Source: Peptostreptococcus sp. D1
GTDB lineage: Bacteria; Bacillota; Clostridia; Peptostreptococcales; Peptostreptococcaceae
DNA length: 40,000 bases
Direction of reading: 5' to 3'
NCBI RefSeq assembly: GCF_900112955.1
Contig: NZ_FONP01000002.1
Coordinates: 192,582-232,581 of the forward strand
In this document: positions 5,840 through 36,006 of the stretch, piece after piece
Numbering within the stretch: the first letter of the stretch is position 1
Layout: each line of letters begins with the position of its first letter
Notes under the pieces: model-generated
The model's database searches: none
What the model was told of the DNA's origin: nothing
The model's input: the letters and a program-made list of their open reading frames with translations, nothing else
Translations under genes and position numbers: made by a program

Positions 5840-6694
5840 TCACCTACTTTCCATCAAAATTAAATTAGCTGTCATTGCCTTTTCCCTCATGGTTTTTATT
5901 CTATGATTTTCCCCATTGAAGATAATAGGTGTTGCCATTTCGAGAAGTCTGGAATAGATTCTCTTTTCTTTTAAATCTGTTGTGTTCATCAGATGAGAGA
6001 TTGATAAATTTGTTGTAACAATAATAGGCTTATTTGCCCTATATCTGCTGTCTATGATGTTAAAGATATGTTCTAGGGCAAAAGATGTATCTCTTTGTAT
6101 TCCAAAATCATCTATAATCAAAAGTCTATTACTGTTTAGATTTTTGATATACATATTTTTATCTATCTGTAGATTCATCATATCGTTTAATATCACTCCG
6201 AAGTTTGTCATTCTAACAGAGATTCCTTTTTCTATCAGGGCATTTGCAATAGAGGATGCCAAATATGTTTTTCCGGTTCCTACCGCCCCTGTCAATATAA
6301 GTCCTATATTTTCTTTTTCCATATCCTCAAAATGCTTTACATAATTTAAGCCTGCCTGTTTATGCTCCAAACTTCCATCTTCTTGTTCAAAAGTTTGTTT
6401 ATACATAAGATCATCATCAAATGCCATACTTTTGAGTCTATTTATACGCATACTATGTTCAAATTCTTCCATTTCTTTTCGTTCTTTTTCCATCTCTTTG
6501 CTTCTACAATCACAATTTTTAGGTATTTTTCTTAAGACACCACCGACATTTGCCATCTGTTGCTTGGCTGTATGGCATTTTCCACAATAGACAAGTCCAT
6601 CTTCACTATTTACATAATCTCCATTTTCCTCATTTAGCATATTCTTTTCCATATTTTCAAATACCTTATCGAAAAGTTCTCTTGTAGTTTCCAT
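5840..6694 (-). CDS. DnaC/IstB-like AAA+ ATPase with an N-terminal Cys4 ribbon
   Basis: Walker A GAVGTGKT, Walker B LLIIDDFG, and CGKCH..CDC near the N-terminus. GAGAGGA SD. Confidence 0.85.
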   Translation of the reverse strand: METTRELFDKVFENMEKNMLNEENGDYVNSEDGLVYCGKCHTAKQQMANVGGVLRKIPKNCDCRSKEMEKERKEMEEFEHSMRINRLKSMAFDDDLMYKQTFEQEDGSLEHKQAGLNYVKHFEDMEKENIGLILTGAVGTGKTYLASSIANALIEKGISVRMTNFGVILNDMMNLQIDKNMYIKNLNSNRLLIIDDFGIQRDTSFALEHIFNIIDSRYRANKPIIVTTNLSISHLMNTTDLKEKRIYSRLLEMATPIIFNGENHRIKTMREKAMTANLILMESR

Positions 6695-6739
6695 TCTCGA
6701 TCCTCTCTTTCACTAAATTTTATTTTTTAAGCCTTTCAA

Positions 6740-7750
6740 TCATTTTCCCTTTAAAAAATCTTGCCATATTCTTTCATCATCAGCATAATTCTCCAGATTT
6801 CCTGTGTTTGTTGACTGTTTATTGTAATAAATAATGTTTATAGGAGCATTGTAGATAATAGATAGTAGATATGCTCTAAAATGTGTAATCTTAGATGTAT
6901 TTTCTTTTAGAACTAACAATATATACTCTATATGCTCTTTTTTGATTTCTAATAACCTTCCCCTAATTTTTTCATAACTTATCCAAGTCTGATTTATTTT
7001 CAAATCTCTTTTACCTTCAACTGCATCCACCATAATTTCTACGACAAAATCTATATTTTCTTTTGTAGGGCTATCTCTATCCATAAAATCTAAATATGAA
7101 ATATTTTGCTTGATTATTTTTTCTACTTGACCTCCTTCCTCTTTTTTCAATTTTCTCTTACATCCTGTTTTATCTATGGAGGTGGTCTTACTAATATCAG
7201 GTTCACTCTTTTTAGTTTTATTTATATTAGTCTTATTACAGTTTGTTTTTGAAACTTCTTGAGGTTTGTTTTCTAAATTTCTTGAAGTTTGTTTTTCAAA
7301 CTTCTGTAAGTTTACTTTTGAAACTTCTTGAAATTTAACATTTAAACTTCTATCTTCACTAGTTTCTTCTTCTGCTGTCCTATTTTCTTCTTTTGTTTCT
7401 ACAAGAAAACTTTTGACATAGATTATGTTCGGTTTTCCAAGCCCTCTTCTTTTCTTTTCTATCAGTCCGAAATCTTGTATTTCTTTCATAATATTGATTG
7501 CCTTGTTTCTGCCTATATTCATAGTTTCTTCTATTTCATCTATGGTAAATATGATGAATACTTTATTTTCTTCATCTAACCACCCATTTTTCATAGATAA
7601 GCTCATTCTATCGAGCAAAATAGCATACAAAACTTTTGCATCGCTACTTAATGTTTTAAAAATGCTGTCTGTATATAAAATTTTAGGTATTTTAAAGAAG
7701 GAGTATTGATCTGCTTCTTTTCCGTAATAATAGCTAAATTTAATATTCAT
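6740..7750 (-). CDS. Replication initiator (RepA_N-type N-terminal domain)
   Basis: 336 aa. YSFFKIPKILYTD...LSSDAKVLYAILLDRMSLS...GWLDEENKVFIIFTIDEI matches the RepA_N pattern of Firmicutes plasmids/ICEs. GGAGGA SD. Confidence 0.75.
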   Translation of the reverse strand: MNIKFSYYYGKEADQYSFFKIPKILYTDSIFKTLSSDAKVLYAILLDRMSLSMKNGWLDEENKVFIIFTIDEIEETMNIGRNKAINIMKEIQDFGLIEKKRRGLGKPNIIYVKSFLVETKEENRTAEEETSEDRSLNVKFQEVSKVNLQKFEKQTSRNLENKPQEVSKTNCNKTNINKTKKSEPDISKTTSIDKTGCKRKLKKEEGGQVEKIIKQNISYLDFMDRDSPTKENIDFVVEIMVDAVEGKRDLKINQTWISYEKIRGRLLEIKKEHIEYILLVLKENTSKITHFRAYLLSIIYNAPINIIYYNKQSTNTGNLENYADDERIWQDFLKGK

Positions 7751-7785
7751 AACTTCCTCCTTCCTGTATTTTTATTTGTTTTAGC

Positions 7786-7820
7786 AACAAAAAAAGAGAT
7801 AACTTCTTTGCTATCTCTTT
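7786..7820 (-). terminator. Rho-independent terminator after the Bro/DinD-like gene
   Basis: 9-bp stem AAAGAGATA/TATCTCTTT (7793-7801 / 7812-7820) with a 10-nt loop, followed by a U-run on the minus strand. Confidence 0.7.
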
Positions 7821-7848
7821 GAAAATATCTTAATTTTAGTTGTTATCT

Positions 7849-8718
7849 TTACTCTGTTTTATCTTCAGAATTTGTATTTTCTATTATAGGGTCTTTTACA
7901 ACATCTTCTATAAGTTTTGACATATCTACTGCATTTTTAGAAGTGATAACTGGTTTTCCGGTTTCTTTCTCAATTTCCTTTCTTGCATTGCCCGCTATAC
8001 TGCCTCCTCTTTTTGCAACTTTTCTATTTTCTTCTAATCCTTTAGGATTGGTCGTTTTGGTAAGTTCTGTTGTCGTGGCTTCTGCAAGCATATTGAGAAC
8101 TACTTCAAGAGTAGTCATATTATCCCTTAAATTCTCCTTTTTCAGTCCTTTTAGATTTTTGTATCCTCTTGTTGTCATTCCGGACCATGCTTTAGTGATT
8201 TCATCGGTAAGGATTGCATATTCAATTCCTTTTTCAATCCCATGATCCTCCCAAGCATCCGTAAGTTCCTTTCTTACTTGAATAGCTTGTAATCTTTGAT
8301 TTATCCACTCTCTTGAATAGCCCTTCTTCAAATATGTTTCTAAGGCTCTGTCAATAGTAAGTTCCGGATCAACAATTTCATCAATTCGCTCTTTTCCTAC
8401 TTCCGCAAGCCATAATTTGAAAGGCTCTGCCTTTGGGGATGGAATGGACTGAATAATACGGAAAATATCTTTCATATTTCCCGCCAATATTTTTCTTTTT
8501 TTGCCACTTGATGATTTCATTTCTACCTGGGGACAATTTGTCCCTATGTAGAAAGCTAACTGTTCATCACGTTTTCTCATCTTCTTGAGATAATCTGTTG
8601 GATTTTTACTTTCTGACAAGACTCCAACTACATCGACTACTGAAAAATACCATTCTTCTTTTTCTTCATCCCAAAAAGAGCGTATTTCTTTATTTTCATA
8701 TAGTTTTATTTCATCCAT
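7849..8718 (-). CDS. Bro-N / DNA-damage-inducible protein D (DinD)-like protein
   Basis: 289 aa. N-terminal IRSFWDEEKEEWYFSVVDVVGVL is Bro-N-like, and the central PKAEPFKLWLAEVGKERI...RKELTDAW is DinD-like (from memory). Confidence 0.6.
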   Translation of the reverse strand: MDEIKLYENKEIRSFWDEEKEEWYFSVVDVVGVLSESKNPTDYLKKMRKRDEQLAFYIGTNCPQVEMKSSSGKKRKILAGNMKDIFRIIQSIPSPKAEPFKLWLAEVGKERIDEIVDPELTIDRALETYLKKGYSREWINQRLQAIQVRKELTDAWEDHGIEKGIEYAILTDEITKAWSGMTTRGYKNLKGLKKENLRDNMTTLEVVLNMLAEATTTELTKTTNPKGLEENRKVAKRGGSIAGNARKEIEKETGKPVITSKNAVDMSKLIEDVVKDPIIENTNSEDKTE

Positions 8719-9783: not shown

Positions 9784-10552
9784 AGCAGATCTCCTTTGCC
9801 AAATTGTCATATGCAATATCTACGCTGCTGCCTTTTGCATATTTTTTTATACTTTGACCGCTGTATATGGATTCACCCACTTTGACTGTTTTGGGGATTT
9901 TGGTTTGAAATACCTCTACCTTTCCCTGATACATTTCTTCCACCTGCTGAGTAAGGAGTTTTGAAAGATTTGTCCTGTTATCGCACATGGTAAGCAAGAT
10001 GCCTTTTACCTTTAGACTTGCGTTGACCCTCTTTTTAATTTTTTGAATGGTTTTTAAAAGTTCACTGATTCCGACGATTGCAAACAACTGTGTATCTGCT
10101 GTAATAAGCACACTATCCGATGCACAAAGTGCATTGATGGTCAAGATATTCAGCGATGGAGAAGTGTCTATCAGGATGTAGTCATACTGCTCTCGTATAG
10201 GTTCAAGGATGCTTGATAGGATTCGTTCACTTCCGGTTTCTGCTTTCATCTGCGTTTCTGTAACGGATAGATAAATGCTTGATGGAATAAAGTCTATGCC
10301 ATCATAGGATAGGATATATCCCTTCGCCAAGTAGTTTTCTTCCTCTAATTCTGCCATTAACAGATGTCCTATGGTTTCTGTAAGTTCATTGGCATTTTCT
10401 ATGCCAAAGCATCTTGTGAGATTAGCTTGCGGATCAAGGTCAATGACGAATACTTTTTTGCCGAGTTCTTTTAATGAATACGCAAGATTTAATGTTGTCG
10501 TTGTTTTTCCAACTCCACCTTTTCGATTGGCAACGGTGATAATTTCTGCCAT
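9776..10552 (-). CDS. parA: ParA/Soj-family partition ATPase
   Basis: Deviant Walker A NRKGGVGKTTT, then VIDLDPQANLT. Confidence 0.92.
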   Translation of the reverse strand: MAEIITVANRKGGVGKTTTTLNLAYSLKELGKKVFVIDLDPQANLTRCFGIENANELTETIGHLLMAELEEENYLAKGYILSYDGIDFIPSSIYLSVTETQMKAETGSERILSSILEPIREQYDYILIDTSPSLNILTINALCASDSVLITADTQLFAIVGISELLKTIQKIKKRVNASLKVKGILLTMCDNRTNLSKLLTQQVEEMYQGKVEVFQTKIPKTVKVGESIYSGQSIKKYAKGSSVDIAYDNLAKEICYE

Positions 10553-10697
10553 AGTATGCCCCCTTCTTCTCTATACAGAGATTTCATTTTATGCTATACT
10601 TTTATACAAATTTTGAGTATAAAAAATGATGACAGTCTATCCATCATCAAAGTTTAAAAGTTTTGTGGAAGCCTTTAACCCTTGATTTTTCTTGGAT

Positions 10698-10877
10698 TTA
10701 TTGTACTGTCATCATTATAGCATTATCCCCACACCCACTTTCGCCACAAAGTACTACACATTGACCTTTTGATATAGTTCCTTTTACATTATCTAATGTC
10801 TTTTCTTTTTTTCCTTCATAAGCAAAGTCTATTTTAAAATCCAAAATATCTTCACTTCTATCAGTTATACGACTCAT
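10698..10877 (-). pseudogene. N-terminal stub of an ABC-transporter ATP-binding protein, cut inside Walker A
   Basis: My own translation: MSRITDRSEDILDFKIDFAYEGKKEKTLDNVKGTISKGQCVVLCGESGCG, then unrelated DNAIMMTVQ and a stop. It begins 11 nt after the TetR stop. Confidence 0.6.
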
Positions 10878-10888
10878 AAATTCAACCC

Positions 10889-11509
10889 TTATTTTATAAA
10901 TTCATTAAAAATCTTTTTCCAACCTGCTCCAATAAATTCCCCCAGCATTTTTACATATTCAATAGTTTCATCCTTGCTATATCCTTTTTTGATAATTAAG
11001 GCATAGATATTGAATTGTTGACTCATTAAAAGTTCCACTAAATCCAATTTCATCTCACTTATATCTGAGTCAATGTTTTCCTTTATAAATGTCTTTGTTT
11101 GAAATATTTTATTTTTCATCATTTCATCAAACATAGCCTCAACGGAGCTTCCTTTGCTGCAACATAGCAAAAGTTTACATTCCTCATAATATTCAAACAG
11201 AAGATCTATATACCTTGCAGTTTCTTTCTCTATATTCTTCAAAAAATCTTCAAAATTTTTATCTGTGCGATAATTCATATATGATGCTCTATTATCTTTC
11301 ACCTCTCTATTCAAAGCTTCTAAAAAATCTTCAATCAGACTATAAAAAAGTTCATCCTTTCCTTTGTATCTCGTATATATAGCCCCGGTTGTAACTCCTG
11401 CTTTTTTAGCAATATTACTTATTGCGGTAGCTTGAAATCCATTTTTCAAAAATTCTATTTTAGCAGCTTCTATAATTGGTTTATCCAGTTCATGATTTTT
11501 ATTAGCCAT
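10889..11509 (-). CDS. TetR/AcrR-family transcriptional regulator
   Basis: HTH: FQATAISNIAKKAGVTTGAIYTRYKGKDELF. GAGGAGG lies 7 nt before the ATG at 11509. The longer track ORF reaching 11611 runs through the operator. Confidence 0.88.
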   Translation of the reverse strand: MANKNHELDKPIIEAAKIEFLKNGFQATAISNIAKKAGVTTGAIYTRYKGKDELFYSLIEDFLEALNREVKDNRASYMNYRTDKNFEDFLKNIEKETARYIDLLFEYYEECKLLLCCSKGSSVEAMFDEMMKNKIFQTKTFIKENIDSDISEMKLDLVELLMSQQFNIYALIIKKGYSKDETIEYVKMLGEFIGAGWKKIFNEFIK

Positions 11510-11544
11510 GTTCATTCCTCCTCGTGTTAAAAATACCATGTTTT

Positions 11545-11588
11545 TATAATCAATAATATCATAATCGATAATTATATTATTGATTATA
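11545..11588. promoter_or_regulatory. Perfect 15-bp inverted repeat upstream of the TetR gene (candidate operator)
   Basis: TATAATCAATAATAT (11545-11559) and ATATTATTGATTATA (11574-11588) with a 14-bp spacer, 36 nt upstream of the TetR start. Confidence 0.6.
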
Positions 11589-33264: not shown

Positions 33265-33721
33265 TACCAGCTATTTTTAATAGCTCTTCCTTAGTCATTT
33301 CTTTGAATTGGTCATTTTGATTCATATCCACTTTAGCCTCTAAGTCTTTTCTATCTCTCCAAATATCAGGTCTTCTATTCTTCAACCAGAAAATCTGAGC
33401 TGTAGTATCTGGCTGCACCTCTTTCACAACTTCTTTAGTAATAACCATCTTTGTTCCAACTAGTTCTCTTGTTGTTTCAGTATAACTATATCCTAATGCC
33501 CTTTTTAGTAAAGCATTCTCAACTTGCCTATCAACAACTTCTTTTCCCTTTTTTAGGGCCTCCGAAATCTCCGAATACTTCTTTTTCCAGTCATAAAGAG
33601 TAGATGTTCTAACCCCCATATTCTTTGCAATTTGTTCGTCTGTTAGACCATCTCTTGCCCAACCTTCAAGCTTTAGCAAGCCTTCAGGCTCTAGCCATTC
33701 TTGATATTTACCTTTAGCCAT
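33251..33721 (-). CDS. terS: Terminase small subunit (HTH type)
   Basis: HTH: LTDEQIAKNMGVRTSTLYDWKKKY. AAGGTGGTGA lies upstream of the ATG at 33721. It overlaps terL. Confidence 0.8.
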   Translation of the reverse strand: MAKGKYQEWLEPEGLLKLEGWARDGLTDEQIAKNMGVRTSTLYDWKKKYSEISEALKKGKEVVDRQVENALLKRALGYSYTETTRELVGTKMVITKEVVKEVQPDTTAQIFWLKNRRPDIWRDRKDLEAKVDMNQNDQFKEMTKEELLKIAGIDDG

Positions 33722-33778
33722 CAGACTCACCACCTTTCTCAACTTTTGCACGTTTTAATCAATCTTTTTATTTGCACG

Positions 33779-33807
33779 AAAAAAGGACCTCTCTGGGTCC
33801 TTTTTTT
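33779..33807 (-). terminator. Hairpin terminator closing the two-gene moron (A/T runs on both sides, so bidirectional)
   Basis: AAAAAGGACC-tctct-GGGTCCTTTTTTT, 31 nt after the stop of 33838..34347. Confidence 0.75.
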
Positions 33808-33837
33808 CTTATAAGTTATTAGTCATCATTACTATAT

Positions 33838-34347
33838 CTAATGTAATTTTTCTATATCATCCTTCATATTTTCCAACTCGTCTTTAGTGAACGGACACCT
33901 ATCATCATACACAATCTTTATTATACTCTTTATTTTACTTGATGACTTAATAAATAGGCTGACTCCTACTATGGTTAATACTATAAGTACATAGGTCGCA
34001 ATTTTAAAAATCACAATATTTTTTAGAATGCCTAAAATCAATATCAAATATAGCGCCGAGGAAAGAGAGATTGATACTACTGAAAATTTAAAGTTAATAG
34101 ATACTAACCTTTCTCTTTCGGCAATTATTCCGCTCCCTCTTAATTCTTGAATTATACTTTCAGATGTAACACTCAGTATTTTACTTTCATTATTCGTACT
34201 AAACCCACATAATATTGAATTGATAGTTATAAAAAAAAGAAATATATTACCAAAATCATTAATCCTCACTATTGTATTTTTAATGAAAAGAAAGCACATA
34301 CATACCAACACAATTAGCACAATTAGATACTTAAATATTTTTTTCAT
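33838..34347 (-). CDS. Four-TM membrane protein (hypothetical; candidate effector of the moron pair)
   Basis: GGGGGGAGGG lies 6 nt before the ATG at 34347. Hydrophobic helices: IFKYLIVLIVLVCMCFLFI, FGNIFLFFITINSILCGF, VVSISLSSALYLILILGIL, IATYVLIVLTIVGVSLFI. Confidence 0.8.
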   Translation of the reverse strand: MKKIFKYLIVLIVLVCMCFLFIKNTIVRINDFGNIFLFFITINSILCGFSTNNESKILSVTSESIIQELRGSGIIAERERLVSINFKFSVVSISLSSALYLILILGILKNIVIFKIATYVLIVLTIVGVSLFIKSSSKIKSIIKIVYDDRCPFTKDELENMKDDIEKLH

Positions 34348-34376
34348 TTTCAGCCCTCCCCCCATCAAAGAGAATA

Positions 34377-35327
34377 CTATTTTTTCATTTTACTAAATAT
34401 TTCCTTCTTTTCATTGTATGCTGTTTTCAAAGCTGATAGATATTCTGTTTTTAATTCTTCCAAATCATGAGAATGTTTCCTTCCATTCTCATATCTGTAT
34501 AGTTTTACATCAATCGTGTATTTATAATACAAGGACATTAAATCATATTCTTGTTTCTTTTCATTTTTAGTGCTACCTTTTATTTTAGCTTTGTTTAGTT
34601 TTTTGGCTTTTACACCTTCCTTAAGAGAATCTATTGCATTCCTTACAACATCTTTATTATCTAATATAAATTTATCTCTATCAGCTTTTAAATATATACC
34701 CACCTTATTTTTATTCTCTTGCATTTGAAGTAGCGTCTTATCATCTAAATTTAATATATGCTTCAAGAAAGAGCTATCTATATCAGCAGATTCAAACTCT
34801 ATAGATTTTATTTTTGAATAGTCATTTTTATAAAACGCATTTAACCCATATTCATTAGGTATTGGAAATGAAGATACTACTCCTTCACCCTCAAAAATAT
34901 TCACTATATCATTAAAACTAAAATGTTTCGCCCCTCCTTTAGTATTCGTAATGCATAAAATGTTACTTGAATACACAAAATAAAAATAATTAACTAACTG
35001 AATTCCTCTCTTTATCTCCTCTTCTGCCGTCAAAACATCCTCAAGTGAACCACTTTCATAATCTCTTTTACCTATTGTTCCAGCTTTGCTCGGTCTGCCT
35101 AACCTTCCAAAGAAAAAAGTTTTATTGTGTTCCAAAACATCAAGAACAATTCTTTTTTCATCATCTTCTTCGTTCTTATCGTACAAGTTTATGCTGATAT
35201 ACTCACTCTTTGATTTACCATGTTTCTTTCCATGTTTCTCTATAATGTTTTTATGTTTTAAATAAAGACTTTCTTTTTCATTTTCTCTAATTTTAACATC
35301 ATAAAAATACACCGTCTTAACCGCCAT
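34377..35327 (-). CDS. 316-aa soluble lysine-rich protein of unknown function (candidate sensor of the moron pair)
   Basis: Clean ORF with an AGGGGGA SD. No Walker, nuclease, TIR, SIR2 or HTH motif is recognisable by eye. Confidence 0.8.
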   Translation of the reverse strand: MAVKTVYFYDVKIRENEKESLYLKHKNIIEKHGKKHGKSKSEYISINLYDKNEEDDEKRIVLDVLEHNKTFFFGRLGRPSKAGTIGKRDYESGSLEDVLTAEEEIKRGIQLVNYFYFVYSSNILCITNTKGGAKHFSFNDIVNIFEGEGVVSSFPIPNEYGLNAFYKNDYSKIKSIEFESADIDSSFLKHILNLDDKTLLQMQENKNKVGIYLKADRDKFILDNKDVVRNAIDSLKEGVKAKKLNKAKIKGSTKNEKKQEYDLMSLYYKYTIDVKLYRYENGRKHSHDLEELKTEYLSALKTAYNEKKEIFSKMKK

Positions 35328-35364
35328 TAACTATTTTCCCCCTAATATAATCATTCTTACCCTA

Positions 35365-35407
35365 ACTATACCAGAGGAAAATATTTTCCACAATATATTA
35401 TTGTCAA
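35365..35407 (-). promoter_or_regulatory. Candidate sigma-A promoter for the moron pair
   Basis: On the minus strand: TTGTGG (35393-35388), 17 nt ending in TGG, then TATAGT (35370-35365), i.e. an extended -10. An additional TTGACA sits at 35407-35402. Confidence 0.5.
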
Positions 35408-35428
35408 ATTTTCTAGAAAAATTCAACG

Positions 35429-35456
35429 AAAAAAGAACATCCTGCCCAAGATGTCC
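35429..35456 (-). terminator. Terminator after the late-regulator gene
   Basis: Minus-strand RNA: GGACAUC-8 nt-GAUGUUC, followed by U6. Confidence 0.5.
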
Positions 35457-35586
35457 TTTTTTTGAATAAATTATTTTAGGGAGGTCATGAAGCCCGTCTA
35501 CTTAAGTCAAAGAAGGTGGTAATTAGTGATTCACAATGACTACCACCCTCAACTTCCACAATACCATAATATCACATTTCTATGGC

Positions 35587-36006
35587 TCATTGTGGCTCAT
35601 CTTTTAATAATTCACCAAATTTTTGTAATGCCCTCCCATGAAATCTTTTCACTTGCGCATATGAATACCCCATCTCATAAGCTATTTTAATCAAATTATA
35701 CCCCTTAAGATATTTTCTGTCTAAAATTTCTATGTATCTATCATCCATCATCAAATCTAGTTTAGATACAATATTTCTCTTAATATCAATCTGCTTATCA
35801 ATCAAAATATCCAACTCTTTCTCATAATCATAGATTTTTGCAATAATGCTAGATAAACTATCTCCACATATTGATGTCTGAACTCTTTCAGATAAGACAG
35901 CACTACACTTTTCAGCCTTAGAACGTTCCTCAATAATTTGGTCAATTTTTAATTTTATCTTATACTCGTAAGCTTGAACTTGCATCAAATATTGTTTAGC
36001 TGTCAT
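35587..36006 (-). CDS. Sigma-70 region-4-like phage late transcriptional activator (DUF1492/RinA-ArpU-like)
   Basis: 139 aa. C-terminal IEILDRKYLKGYNLIKIAYEMGYSYAQVKRFHGRALQKF is a region-4-type HTH. It sits upstream of the packaging genes. Confidence 0.65.
   Translation of the reverse strand: MTAKQYLMQVQAYEYKIKLKIDQIIEERSKAEKCSAVLSERVQTSICGDSLSSIIAKIYDYEKELDILIDKQIDIKRNIVSKLDLMMDDRYIEILDRKYLKGYNLIKIAYEMGYSYAQVKRFHGRALQKFGELLKDEPQ

Follow-up and report, generated by a model that had tools for sequence, protein, structure and literature searches.

We describe a two-gene cassette in a 40,000-nt stretch of Peptostreptococcus sp. D1 DNA (contig NZ_FONP01000002.1, positions 192,582 to 232,581; hereafter, the window), formed by gene A, encoding a soluble protein, and gene B, encoding a membrane protein. 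The cassette is probably a moron carrying a highly divergent Rex-type two-component exclusion (abortive-infection) system of a Peptostreptococcus canis prophage, and is better placed among the Rex systems, as a divergent Gram-positive variant, than in a categorically new family. An earlier interpretation of the same DNA made without database searches (the sequence-only reading) had proposed a prophage-borne abortive-infection or exclusion pair, possibly constituting a separate, undescribed family. The proposed role is still the best reading, as the slot occupied by the cassette holds recognised defence genes in related phages; the separate family is not borne out, as the A family aligns to RexA and its predicted fold resembles that of RdgC, Iml3 and Chl4.

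A word-indexed search of 5.8 billion protein clusters yielded only two relatives each for A and B. An exhaustive HMMER search extended the A family to 108 cluster representatives, 65 of them at E < 1e-10, nearly all 300–330 aa long and matched end to end. Alignments and model searches of the A family were based on 77 members, and searches with B, on 8 members. In public sources the family is named only “hypothetical protein” or is unannotated. A tblastn search with A found no match in 50,697 phage records, among which the sole carrier of a family member is Acetoanaerobium phage ANDSL2_ph1. Moreover, Pfam, PADLOC, NCBIfam and PHROGs returned nothing meaningful for A, B or their families, including the DUF4868 and DUF4747 models singled out in the sequence-only reading. 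Both Pfam and PADLOC contain working models of RexA and RexB, and phage lambda RexA matches the respective RexA models at 1e-97 and 9e-110.

The evidence for the relationship between A and RexA comes from the comparison of family profiles. The A-family profile aligns to a 22-sequence RexA profile with the hhalign probability of 91.7% (E 7.8e-7, score 52.8) over 228 colinear columns, covering residues 5–267 of A and 2–238 of RexA. Reversed profiles score about 13, and 120 column- or block-shuffled profiles score 15–17 ± 3, with the maximum of 31. Independent halves of the A family match the RexA profile at 85% and 88% in the same register. The signal grows with the distance from the window A, from 4.6% in the closest third of the family through 37.5% in the middle one to 95.2% in the most distant one, with the register constant; therefore, the A family forms a continuum, with the window clade at the end furthest from RexA. 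The RexA family profile is required here, as the alignment of the A family to the single lambda RexA sequence gives no signal. A basic motif of the A family is aligned with R219 and K221, the DNA-binding residues of RexA.

The structure of A was modelled by AlphaFold from the 77-sequence alignment with the predicted local distance difference test score (pLDDT) of 91 and the predicted template-modelling score of 0.86; a model from a 3-sequence alignment, with pLDDT of 47, was discarded. A search of PDB sequences with the A profile (hmmsearch) found nothing. At the level of structure, the top Foldseek matches of the model in PDB are Escherichia coli RdgC (2owl, 2owy; probability 0.99, E 5.5e-4), followed by CENP-L, Iml3-Chl4 and CENP-N/Chl4. 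This agrees well with the structural relatives reported for RexA, that is, RdgC (2OWL), IML3 and CHL4 (PMC11077077). In RexA, a globular beta-sheet domain is split by the dimerisation domain, which contains four strands and four helices, and the chain ends in a long helix (PMC11077077); the order of elements in the A model follows this plan. The TM-scores of the model with RdgC are just 0.35–0.39, which is consistent with different domain orientations or real divergence. Structural matches of A in BFVD are uncharacterised phage proteins, followed by phage RdgC proteins and proteins with recombination-associated annotations. Hence the structure prediction suggested in the sequence-only reading did yield a confident model, and the relatives retrieved with it are those reported for RexA. 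Judged by profile comparison and predicted structure, A is a remote homolog of RexA with a predicted RdgC-class fold; in the system it would serve as the cytoplasmic sensor and bind DNA.

The same matches are also what one would expect of a phage RdgC-type modulator of recombination, acting on RecA or replication restart, with B being merely an adjacent, unrelated gene: the top PDB match and several BFVD matches are RdgC or recombination-associated proteins, and rdgC genes are common in phages (387 records). However, hhalign of the A family with an 8-sequence RdgC profile gives 0.7%, compared to 91.7% with RexA, and no Pfam RdgC match is present in the 77 members, so that A was rejected as a member of the RdgC sequence family; for RexA itself, hhalign with RdgC gives 0.1%. 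Strict operonic pairing, observed here in eight of eight clades, is no feature of rdgC genes, and the cassette, equipped with promoter-like signals and terminators of its own, is located outside recombination modules. We regard such a recombination role as very improbable.

The putative DNA-binding features of A are relevant for the main alternative to the Rex-type system, a Kiwa-like logic built from the same parts with the roles swapped. In this case B would sense the membrane perturbation at phage DNA entry, while A would be the effector: by clamping the incoming phage DNA, it would block both its replication and late transcription, and the cell would survive. In the structure searches, A is most similar to RdgC, a DNA binder that forms rings, and to kinetochore proteins that bind DNA; A is basic, and its family has the conserved basic motif at the position of the RexA DNA-binding residues. 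KwaB is likewise a dimer of ~315-aa subunits; its DNA channel is positively charged, and it is tethered to a protein with four transmembrane helices (4-TM; PMC11785009). Moreover, the DNA binding of RexA was uncorrelated with exclusion in the RexA study (PMC11077077), which leaves the canonical Rex model insecure. Still, neither DUF4868 nor the Kiwa PADLOC models match any of the 77 A or 8 B members (E <= 0.01), the gene order is opposite to kwaA–kwaB, KwaB, composed of a Rossmann-like domain and DUF4868 (PMC11785009), is absent from the top 50 Foldseek PDB matches of the A model, and the sequence homology of A points to RexA. The Kiwa-like logic is therefore unlikely. The sequence-only reading had considered Kiwa to be the nearest architecture; no testable feature of Kiwa was found, and RexA/RexB and their actinophage relatives turned out to be nearer.

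Protein A has no hydrophobic segment (the maximum 19-residue hydropathy is 1.1), its isoelectric point is 9.0, and lysines constitute 15% of its residues. Protein B has hydrophobic segments at about 5–22, 32–50, 87–107 and 110–133, with a loop of ~35 residues between the second and the third ones, and a charged C-terminal tail. The pair thus agrees with its initial description as a soluble lysine-rich protein and a four-helix one. The B family has an invariant T-x-x-S-x-x-x-G-F motif at the end of the second transmembrane helix and a conserved central loop with L-[RK]-G; by the positive-inside rule, the N-terminus, the central loop and the C-terminal tail are probably cytoplasmic. We consider B to be a putative membrane effector by analogy with RexB, which has a similar size, membrane topology and place in the operon. 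The models of RexB (PF15968, PDLC02340), KwaA and other Pfam and PADLOC families do not match any of the 8 B members. The hhalign score of B with a 4-sequence RexB profile is 15.5, that is, within the shuffled range of 12 ± 2 (maximum 16.6), both alignments being shallow, and thus B was rejected as a detectable RexB homolog.

In all eight sampled clades, with identity decreasing to ~20%, a B homolog directly follows A, the gaps between the genes being –17 to +51 nt and the partner membrane proteins, 153–206 aa long. Two partners that were not used for training of the B profile match it at 5.9e-13 and 6.9e-27. The position of the pair varies. In the sampled loci it is found mostly just upstream of the small terminase gene terS, of which several unrelated types are involved; one pair is situated at a prophage end, after the holin and endolysin genes and adjoining host genes; in the cultured temperate phage ANDSL2_ph1 it resides on the repressor/integrase strand; and elsewhere it is directly downstream of a cI-like repressor gene diverging from a cro-like gene, as in lambda cI-rexA-rexB. 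Hence the co-occurrence of the two genes and the variability of their location, both raised as questions in the sequence-only reading, are observed at terS, prophage-end and repressor sites. In ANDSL2_ph1 (L021/L024, PP197248.1 17858–24259) the pair closes a long run of genes on the repressor strand, in the order of repressor, ImmA-like metalloprotease, HSDR_N endonuclease-like protein, Zip-family membrane protein, two unknowns, A, B and serine integrase; several of them may be additional accessory or defence genes expressed in the lysogen.

The window sequence fully coincides (100% identity) with Scaffold1 of P. canis DSM 27025, where a 39-kb viral region has been delineated by IMG/VR; therefore, the window represents a prophage, its host being a Gram-positive anaerobe. 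Contigs of at least three phage backbones encode a protein with 98% identity to the window A (P0001): one backbone is of an ERF/SSB type and has the same terS as the window, another is of a PolA/VapE/SNF2 type with a Terminase_2 terS and an HNH gene, and a third type has Terminase_2 and Terminase_3. The cassette copies from different backbones are 96–98% identical and have sharp junctions. As seen by blastn, two loci (L005 and L006) share with the window phage only the region 35436..33713, one locus (L001) has the cassette and the right flank in common with it, and one more (L003), the cassette and the left flank. In the junction alignments, the left junction is the T-run of each phage’s own upstream terminator, and the right junction is the terS ATG, beyond which three unrelated terS genes are found in different phages.

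Moreover, the phage L040 represents an empty-site allele. It is near-isogenic to L001, being 96–98% identical to it in the early region and 94% identical across terS/terL, and has 6 nt in place of L001 positions 9913–11554 (1,642 bp comprising the promoter-like region, A, B and the terminator). This indel maps to positions ~33777–35417 of the window, essentially the unit delimited in the sequence-only reading. Among 80 viral contigs whose terS is 52–88% identical to the window terS, none has members of the A or B families. The pair is thus not an invariant core of this phage family, a possibility that would have spoken against its interpretation as cargo. The cassette has the lowest GC content in the window, 0.284, compared to the window mean of 0.336 (standard deviation 0.022), and just 0.26% of segments of equal length have such low values, in agreement with the initial impression that the cassette is more A+T-rich than its surroundings. 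The second-lowest GC region of the window, 6300–8000 (~0.287–0.289), overlaps minus-strand open reading frames of 284, 336 and 289 aa (5840..6694, 6740..7750 and 7849..8718), and may be another acquired accessory block.

Presence in one and absence from the other of two near-identical phages, the cassette’s own signals and deviant composition are all characteristic of morons, the promoter activity being a prediction. The empty-site allele, sharp junctions, three unrelated terS genes, low GC content and absence from 80 terS-related phages support, at the level of genome comparison, the interpretation of the unit as a horizontally exchanged, dispensable moron, and the self-contained unit in a moron position was correctly recognised in the sequence-only reading.

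The frequent proximity to terS raises a possibility that the pair is an accessory of packaging or late-gene expression coupled to the small terminase, since in most sampled loci it is immediately upstream of terS, and the terS leader with its ribosome-binding site travels with the cassette. But the pair is also found at a prophage end and, at a distance from terS, in lysogeny modules; the terminase genes that it precedes are of no fewer than four unrelated types (HTH_Tnp_1-type, Terminase_2 and Terminase_5 among them); and it is absent from the 80 terS-related phages and from the near-isogenic L040. Nor is there any virion or packaging match in PHROGs or in the fold searches, a finding that would have argued against the defence role proposed initially. 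This explanation is largely refuted, and we assign it a minimal probability.

The gap between the late regulator gene and terS is variable. In 19 loci with a detectable regulator homolog, the distance from the regulator stop to the terS start is 70–2,252 nt; it does not exceed 177 nt in eleven of these relatives, and in the others different cargo intervenes. A pattern search for late-regulator relatives in viral contigs found none. The cargo (L105:4248–4937, L113:4081–4902, L115:2928–4913) comprises recognised or candidate defence genes; in related phages it includes PD-T7-4 (PADLOC 2.6e-79) and PDC-M14B (7.9e-12), as well as a DUF6602 NucC/PD-(D/E)xK-like nuclease (8e-18) followed by an unannotated 313-aa protein. 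Judging from these loci, the gap behaves as a hotspot for defence cargo in this phage lineage. The variety of the cargo and the absence of the pair in relatives mean that A and B are not core genes, and their location supports a role as anti-phage cargo. In one more relative (L039:631–1121), with terS 88% identical to that of the window, the right-hand terminator of the cassette and the terS leader are present, and ~400 nt of different sequence upstream replace A and B; the slot may exist here as a third allele or retain what was left after its cargo had been replaced.

The distribution of the pair also bears on the possibility that it serves the life cycle of the prophage itself, not defence, with A acting as a RexA-like non-specific DNA binder that biases the lysis–lysogeny switch or the timing of late genes, and B modulating A or stabilising phage proteins. 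There are precedents for that, as RexA stabilises the lytic state of the lambda switch without RexB, and RexB has separate anti-proteolysis roles (PMC11077077); moreover, the window cassette separates the late regulator from the late operon, and distant members adjoin repressors. However, neither L040 nor the 80 terS-related phages have the cassette, it moves among unrelated backbones with different regulators and terminases, and the same slot holds bona fide defence genes in relatives. As a function bound to the circuit of one phage is not expected to transfer so freely, such a role is quite unlikely.

The cassette as a 1.6-kb unit consists of two minus-strand genes bounded by two hairpin terminators. 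Gene A (34377..35327, 316 aa) starts with an ATG preceded by the Shine–Dalgarno sequence AGGGGGA 9 nt upstream; gene B (33838..34347, 169 aa) starts with the ATG at 34347, 29 nt past the A stop, with the Shine–Dalgarno sequence GGGGGGAGGG 6 nt upstream. The intrinsic terminator of the upstream late-regulator gene (35429..35462, minus strand) is a 15-pair hairpin with a T-run (folding free energy –15.2 kcal/mol, z = –3.9 relative to shuffled sequence), and its T-run is the left junction of the cassette. The intrinsic terminator closing the cassette (33779..33806, minus strand), again a hairpin with a T-run, marks the right-hand limit of the block that the empty-site allele lacks; its folding free energy is –13.6 kcal/mol (z = –3.5), none of 200 shuffles folds equally well, and it is retained in other copies of the cassette with compensating differences in the stem. 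The two terminators are similar to each other (AAAAAAGGAC...TCCTTTTTTCGT), and both have an A-run ahead of the stem and a T-run behind it. They could work bidirectionally, and their similar T-run ends might provide short homologies for the cassette exchange.

The promoter-like region (35365..35407, minus strand) contains TTGACA at 35402–35407 and TTGTGG–17 nt–TGgTATAGT at 35365–35393. It is situated inside the 1,642-bp block missing from L040, and its hexamers are retained in L001, L003, L005 and L006, the TG of the extended –10 element being not conserved. In the AT-rich window matches to the promoter consensus are common, with 24 observed in a scan and 14.7 expected, and for this reason the promoter activity of the region is treated here as inferred. 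Overall, the two-gene layout, Shine–Dalgarno sequences, promoter-like elements and terminators described in the sequence-only reading were found where it had placed them or within a few bases.

The flanking genes also proved to be those suggested initially. Upstream of the cassette is the sigma-like late regulator gene (35587..36006, minus strand; phrog_36, 4e-17, with a weak match to Sigma70_r4), and downstream are terS (phrog_309, 1e-68), terL and the portal gene. The terS leader (33713..33778, minus strand), with the ribosome-binding site GAAAGGTGGTGAG, shares the conservation of the cassette as far as the ATG. The real start of terS is probably this ATG at 33722, rather than the GTG at 33751 of the mechanically called open reading frame, given the conserved GAAAGGTGGTGAG, the homology breakpoint and the gene calls in relatives (156 aa); the blastn breakpoints among the cassette copies fall at 33713–33727. 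The repeated AAAAGTTGAG in the terS leader was rejected as a late promoter or regulator site, since only two of the 78 related leaders contain it and the window shows no enrichment of it.

We suggest the following scheme for a Rex-type system of this kind, in which the lysogen expression, the interaction between A and B, the trigger, depolarisation and the exclusion phenotype are all modelled on the literature on Rex, Sbash and CarolAnn. The cassette would be transcribed from its own sigma-A-type promoter independently of the late operon, probably in the lysogen. A may function as a cytoplasmic dimer, with the RdgC-like combination of the split globular and dimerisation domains, binding DNA or a phage-made trigger; once triggered, it would act on B via the conserved cytoplasmic central loop of the latter. 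B, as a four-helix inner-membrane protein, would then dissipate the membrane potential, so that macromolecular synthesis stops and the superinfecting phage is aborted.

Several observations weigh against the Rex-type assignment. The link to RexA comes from a single profile–profile method, and the window clade taken alone gives no signal. The Pfam and PADLOC hidden Markov models of RexA (PF15969, PDLC02339) miss the window A, and their lone match among the 77 family members (E 0.0043) is at the chance level, and accordingly served as a lead and not as evidence. For B, no similarity to RexB is detectable with either the single sequence or the profile. Most of the sampled cassettes are located just upstream of terS, in the late-gene orientation and outside the immunity region. 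Finally, the function and expression of the cassette are inferred from homologs, and the mechanism of Rex itself is not fully settled in the literature.

If the Rex-type assignment holds, it extends the known range of these systems. Rex is the oldest known phage-exclusion system, and its mechanism is still unsettled; to our knowledge, its relatives are confined to lambdoid phages of enterobacteria and a few actinophages. The cassette would define a Clostridia/Peptostreptococcaceae branch of Rex of ~108 cluster representatives, all of them hypothetical or unannotated. As this branch is missed by the Pfam and PADLOC models tried, current counts of Rex-type immunity are probably too low for Gram-positive anaerobes in the microbiomes of gut and mouth. 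The A family ties RexA more firmly to the RdgC DNA-binding fold, while B would constitute a second, unrelated-looking family of membrane partners with a conserved cytoplasmic loop, providing comparative material for studies of the communication between the sensor and the membrane. Moreover, the late regulator–terS hotspot offers a natural pair of an occupied and an empty allele (L001 and L040).

A more speculative possibility, to which we give rather limited credence, is that A and B are an evolutionary bridge, with Rex sensors being RdgC-derived DNA clamps whose membrane partner has been swapped or has diverged beyond recognition. Here A would be nearer to RdgC in predicted structure than the published RexA is, and nearer to RexA in sequence. 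If so, the pair might work by Kiwa-like capture of DNA at the membrane, not by ion-channel suicide, and the Rex, DUF4747 and Kiwa-type systems would form one mechanistic class of membrane-tethered DNA-clamp defences.

Compared to known systems, the cassette resembles Kiwa in being a two-gene unit of a 4-TM protein and a dimeric DNA-binding protein of ~315 aa, with the membrane-associated anti-phage logic. The gene order is reversed, as the membrane gene is downstream of the soluble one in all eight clades, and the Rossmann-like N-terminal domain is a feature of KwaB distinguishing it from A. RdgC (PF04381) is the best structural match of A and has a similar length (303 aa), both proteins being probably dimeric DNA binders; unlike A, RdgC is encoded by a stand-alone gene without a membrane partner, and the two have no profile-level sequence similarity.

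With lambda RexA/RexB (PF15969 and PF15968; PDB 8TWQ for RexA) the cassette shares the organisation of a prophage-borne two-gene operon in which a gene for a soluble basic protein of ~280–320 aa is followed by a gene for a 4-TM protein of ~145–170 aa (RexB is 144 aa long). The profile–profile homology of A and RexA covers nearly the full length, the A model seems to belong to the same fold class with the same structural relatives, RdgC and Iml3/Chl4, and distant A–B members are located directly downstream of a cI-like repressor, similar to lambda rexAB. On the other hand, the identity in the aligned region is ~12%, the RexA and RexB models miss the pair, and A exceeds RexA in length by ~40 aa. 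No relationship of B to RexB is detectable; the conserved central loop of B is longer, and its C-terminal tail is charged. The window cassette resides in a Gram-positive anaerobic host, has its own promoter-like signals and is flanked by the late regulator gene and terS, outside the immunity region.

Another pair, in the same slot next to a related terS (L098:2794–4237), encodes a 297-aa protein overlapping the start of a 192-aa 4-TM protein. It is not detected by the hidden Markov models of A or B; the 297-aa protein is weakly matched by DUF4747 (E 1.6e-4, below the cut-off), its hhalign comparison with the A family gives 79% over 224 columns, and the RexA profile gives no signal with it. This pair hints at a wider Rex/DUF4747 superfamily of sensor and 4-TM pairs in these phages.

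Among the Rex-like systems of actinophages, Sbash gp30/gp31 and CarolAnn gp44/gp43 are validated defences with 4-TM partners of 165–178 aa (PMC6426596, PMC6426606). These systems, as well as that of Butters, consist of a weakly annotated soluble sensor with the 4-TM partner directly downstream, as in the cassette, and provide prophage-expressed, heterotypic defence. They differ from it in the phylum and in that their function has been demonstrated experimentally, and their sensors are 337–372 aa long with weak DUF4747 matches, whereas DUF4747 (PF15931), reported in Sbash gp30, CarolAnn gp44 and RexA, matches none of the 77 A members at E <= 0.01. The Sbash 30/31 pair has its own lysogenic promoter and is located outside the immunity region, next to virion genes (PMC6426596, PMC6426606); as far as its description allows the comparison, it is the closest precedent for the layout of the window cassette.

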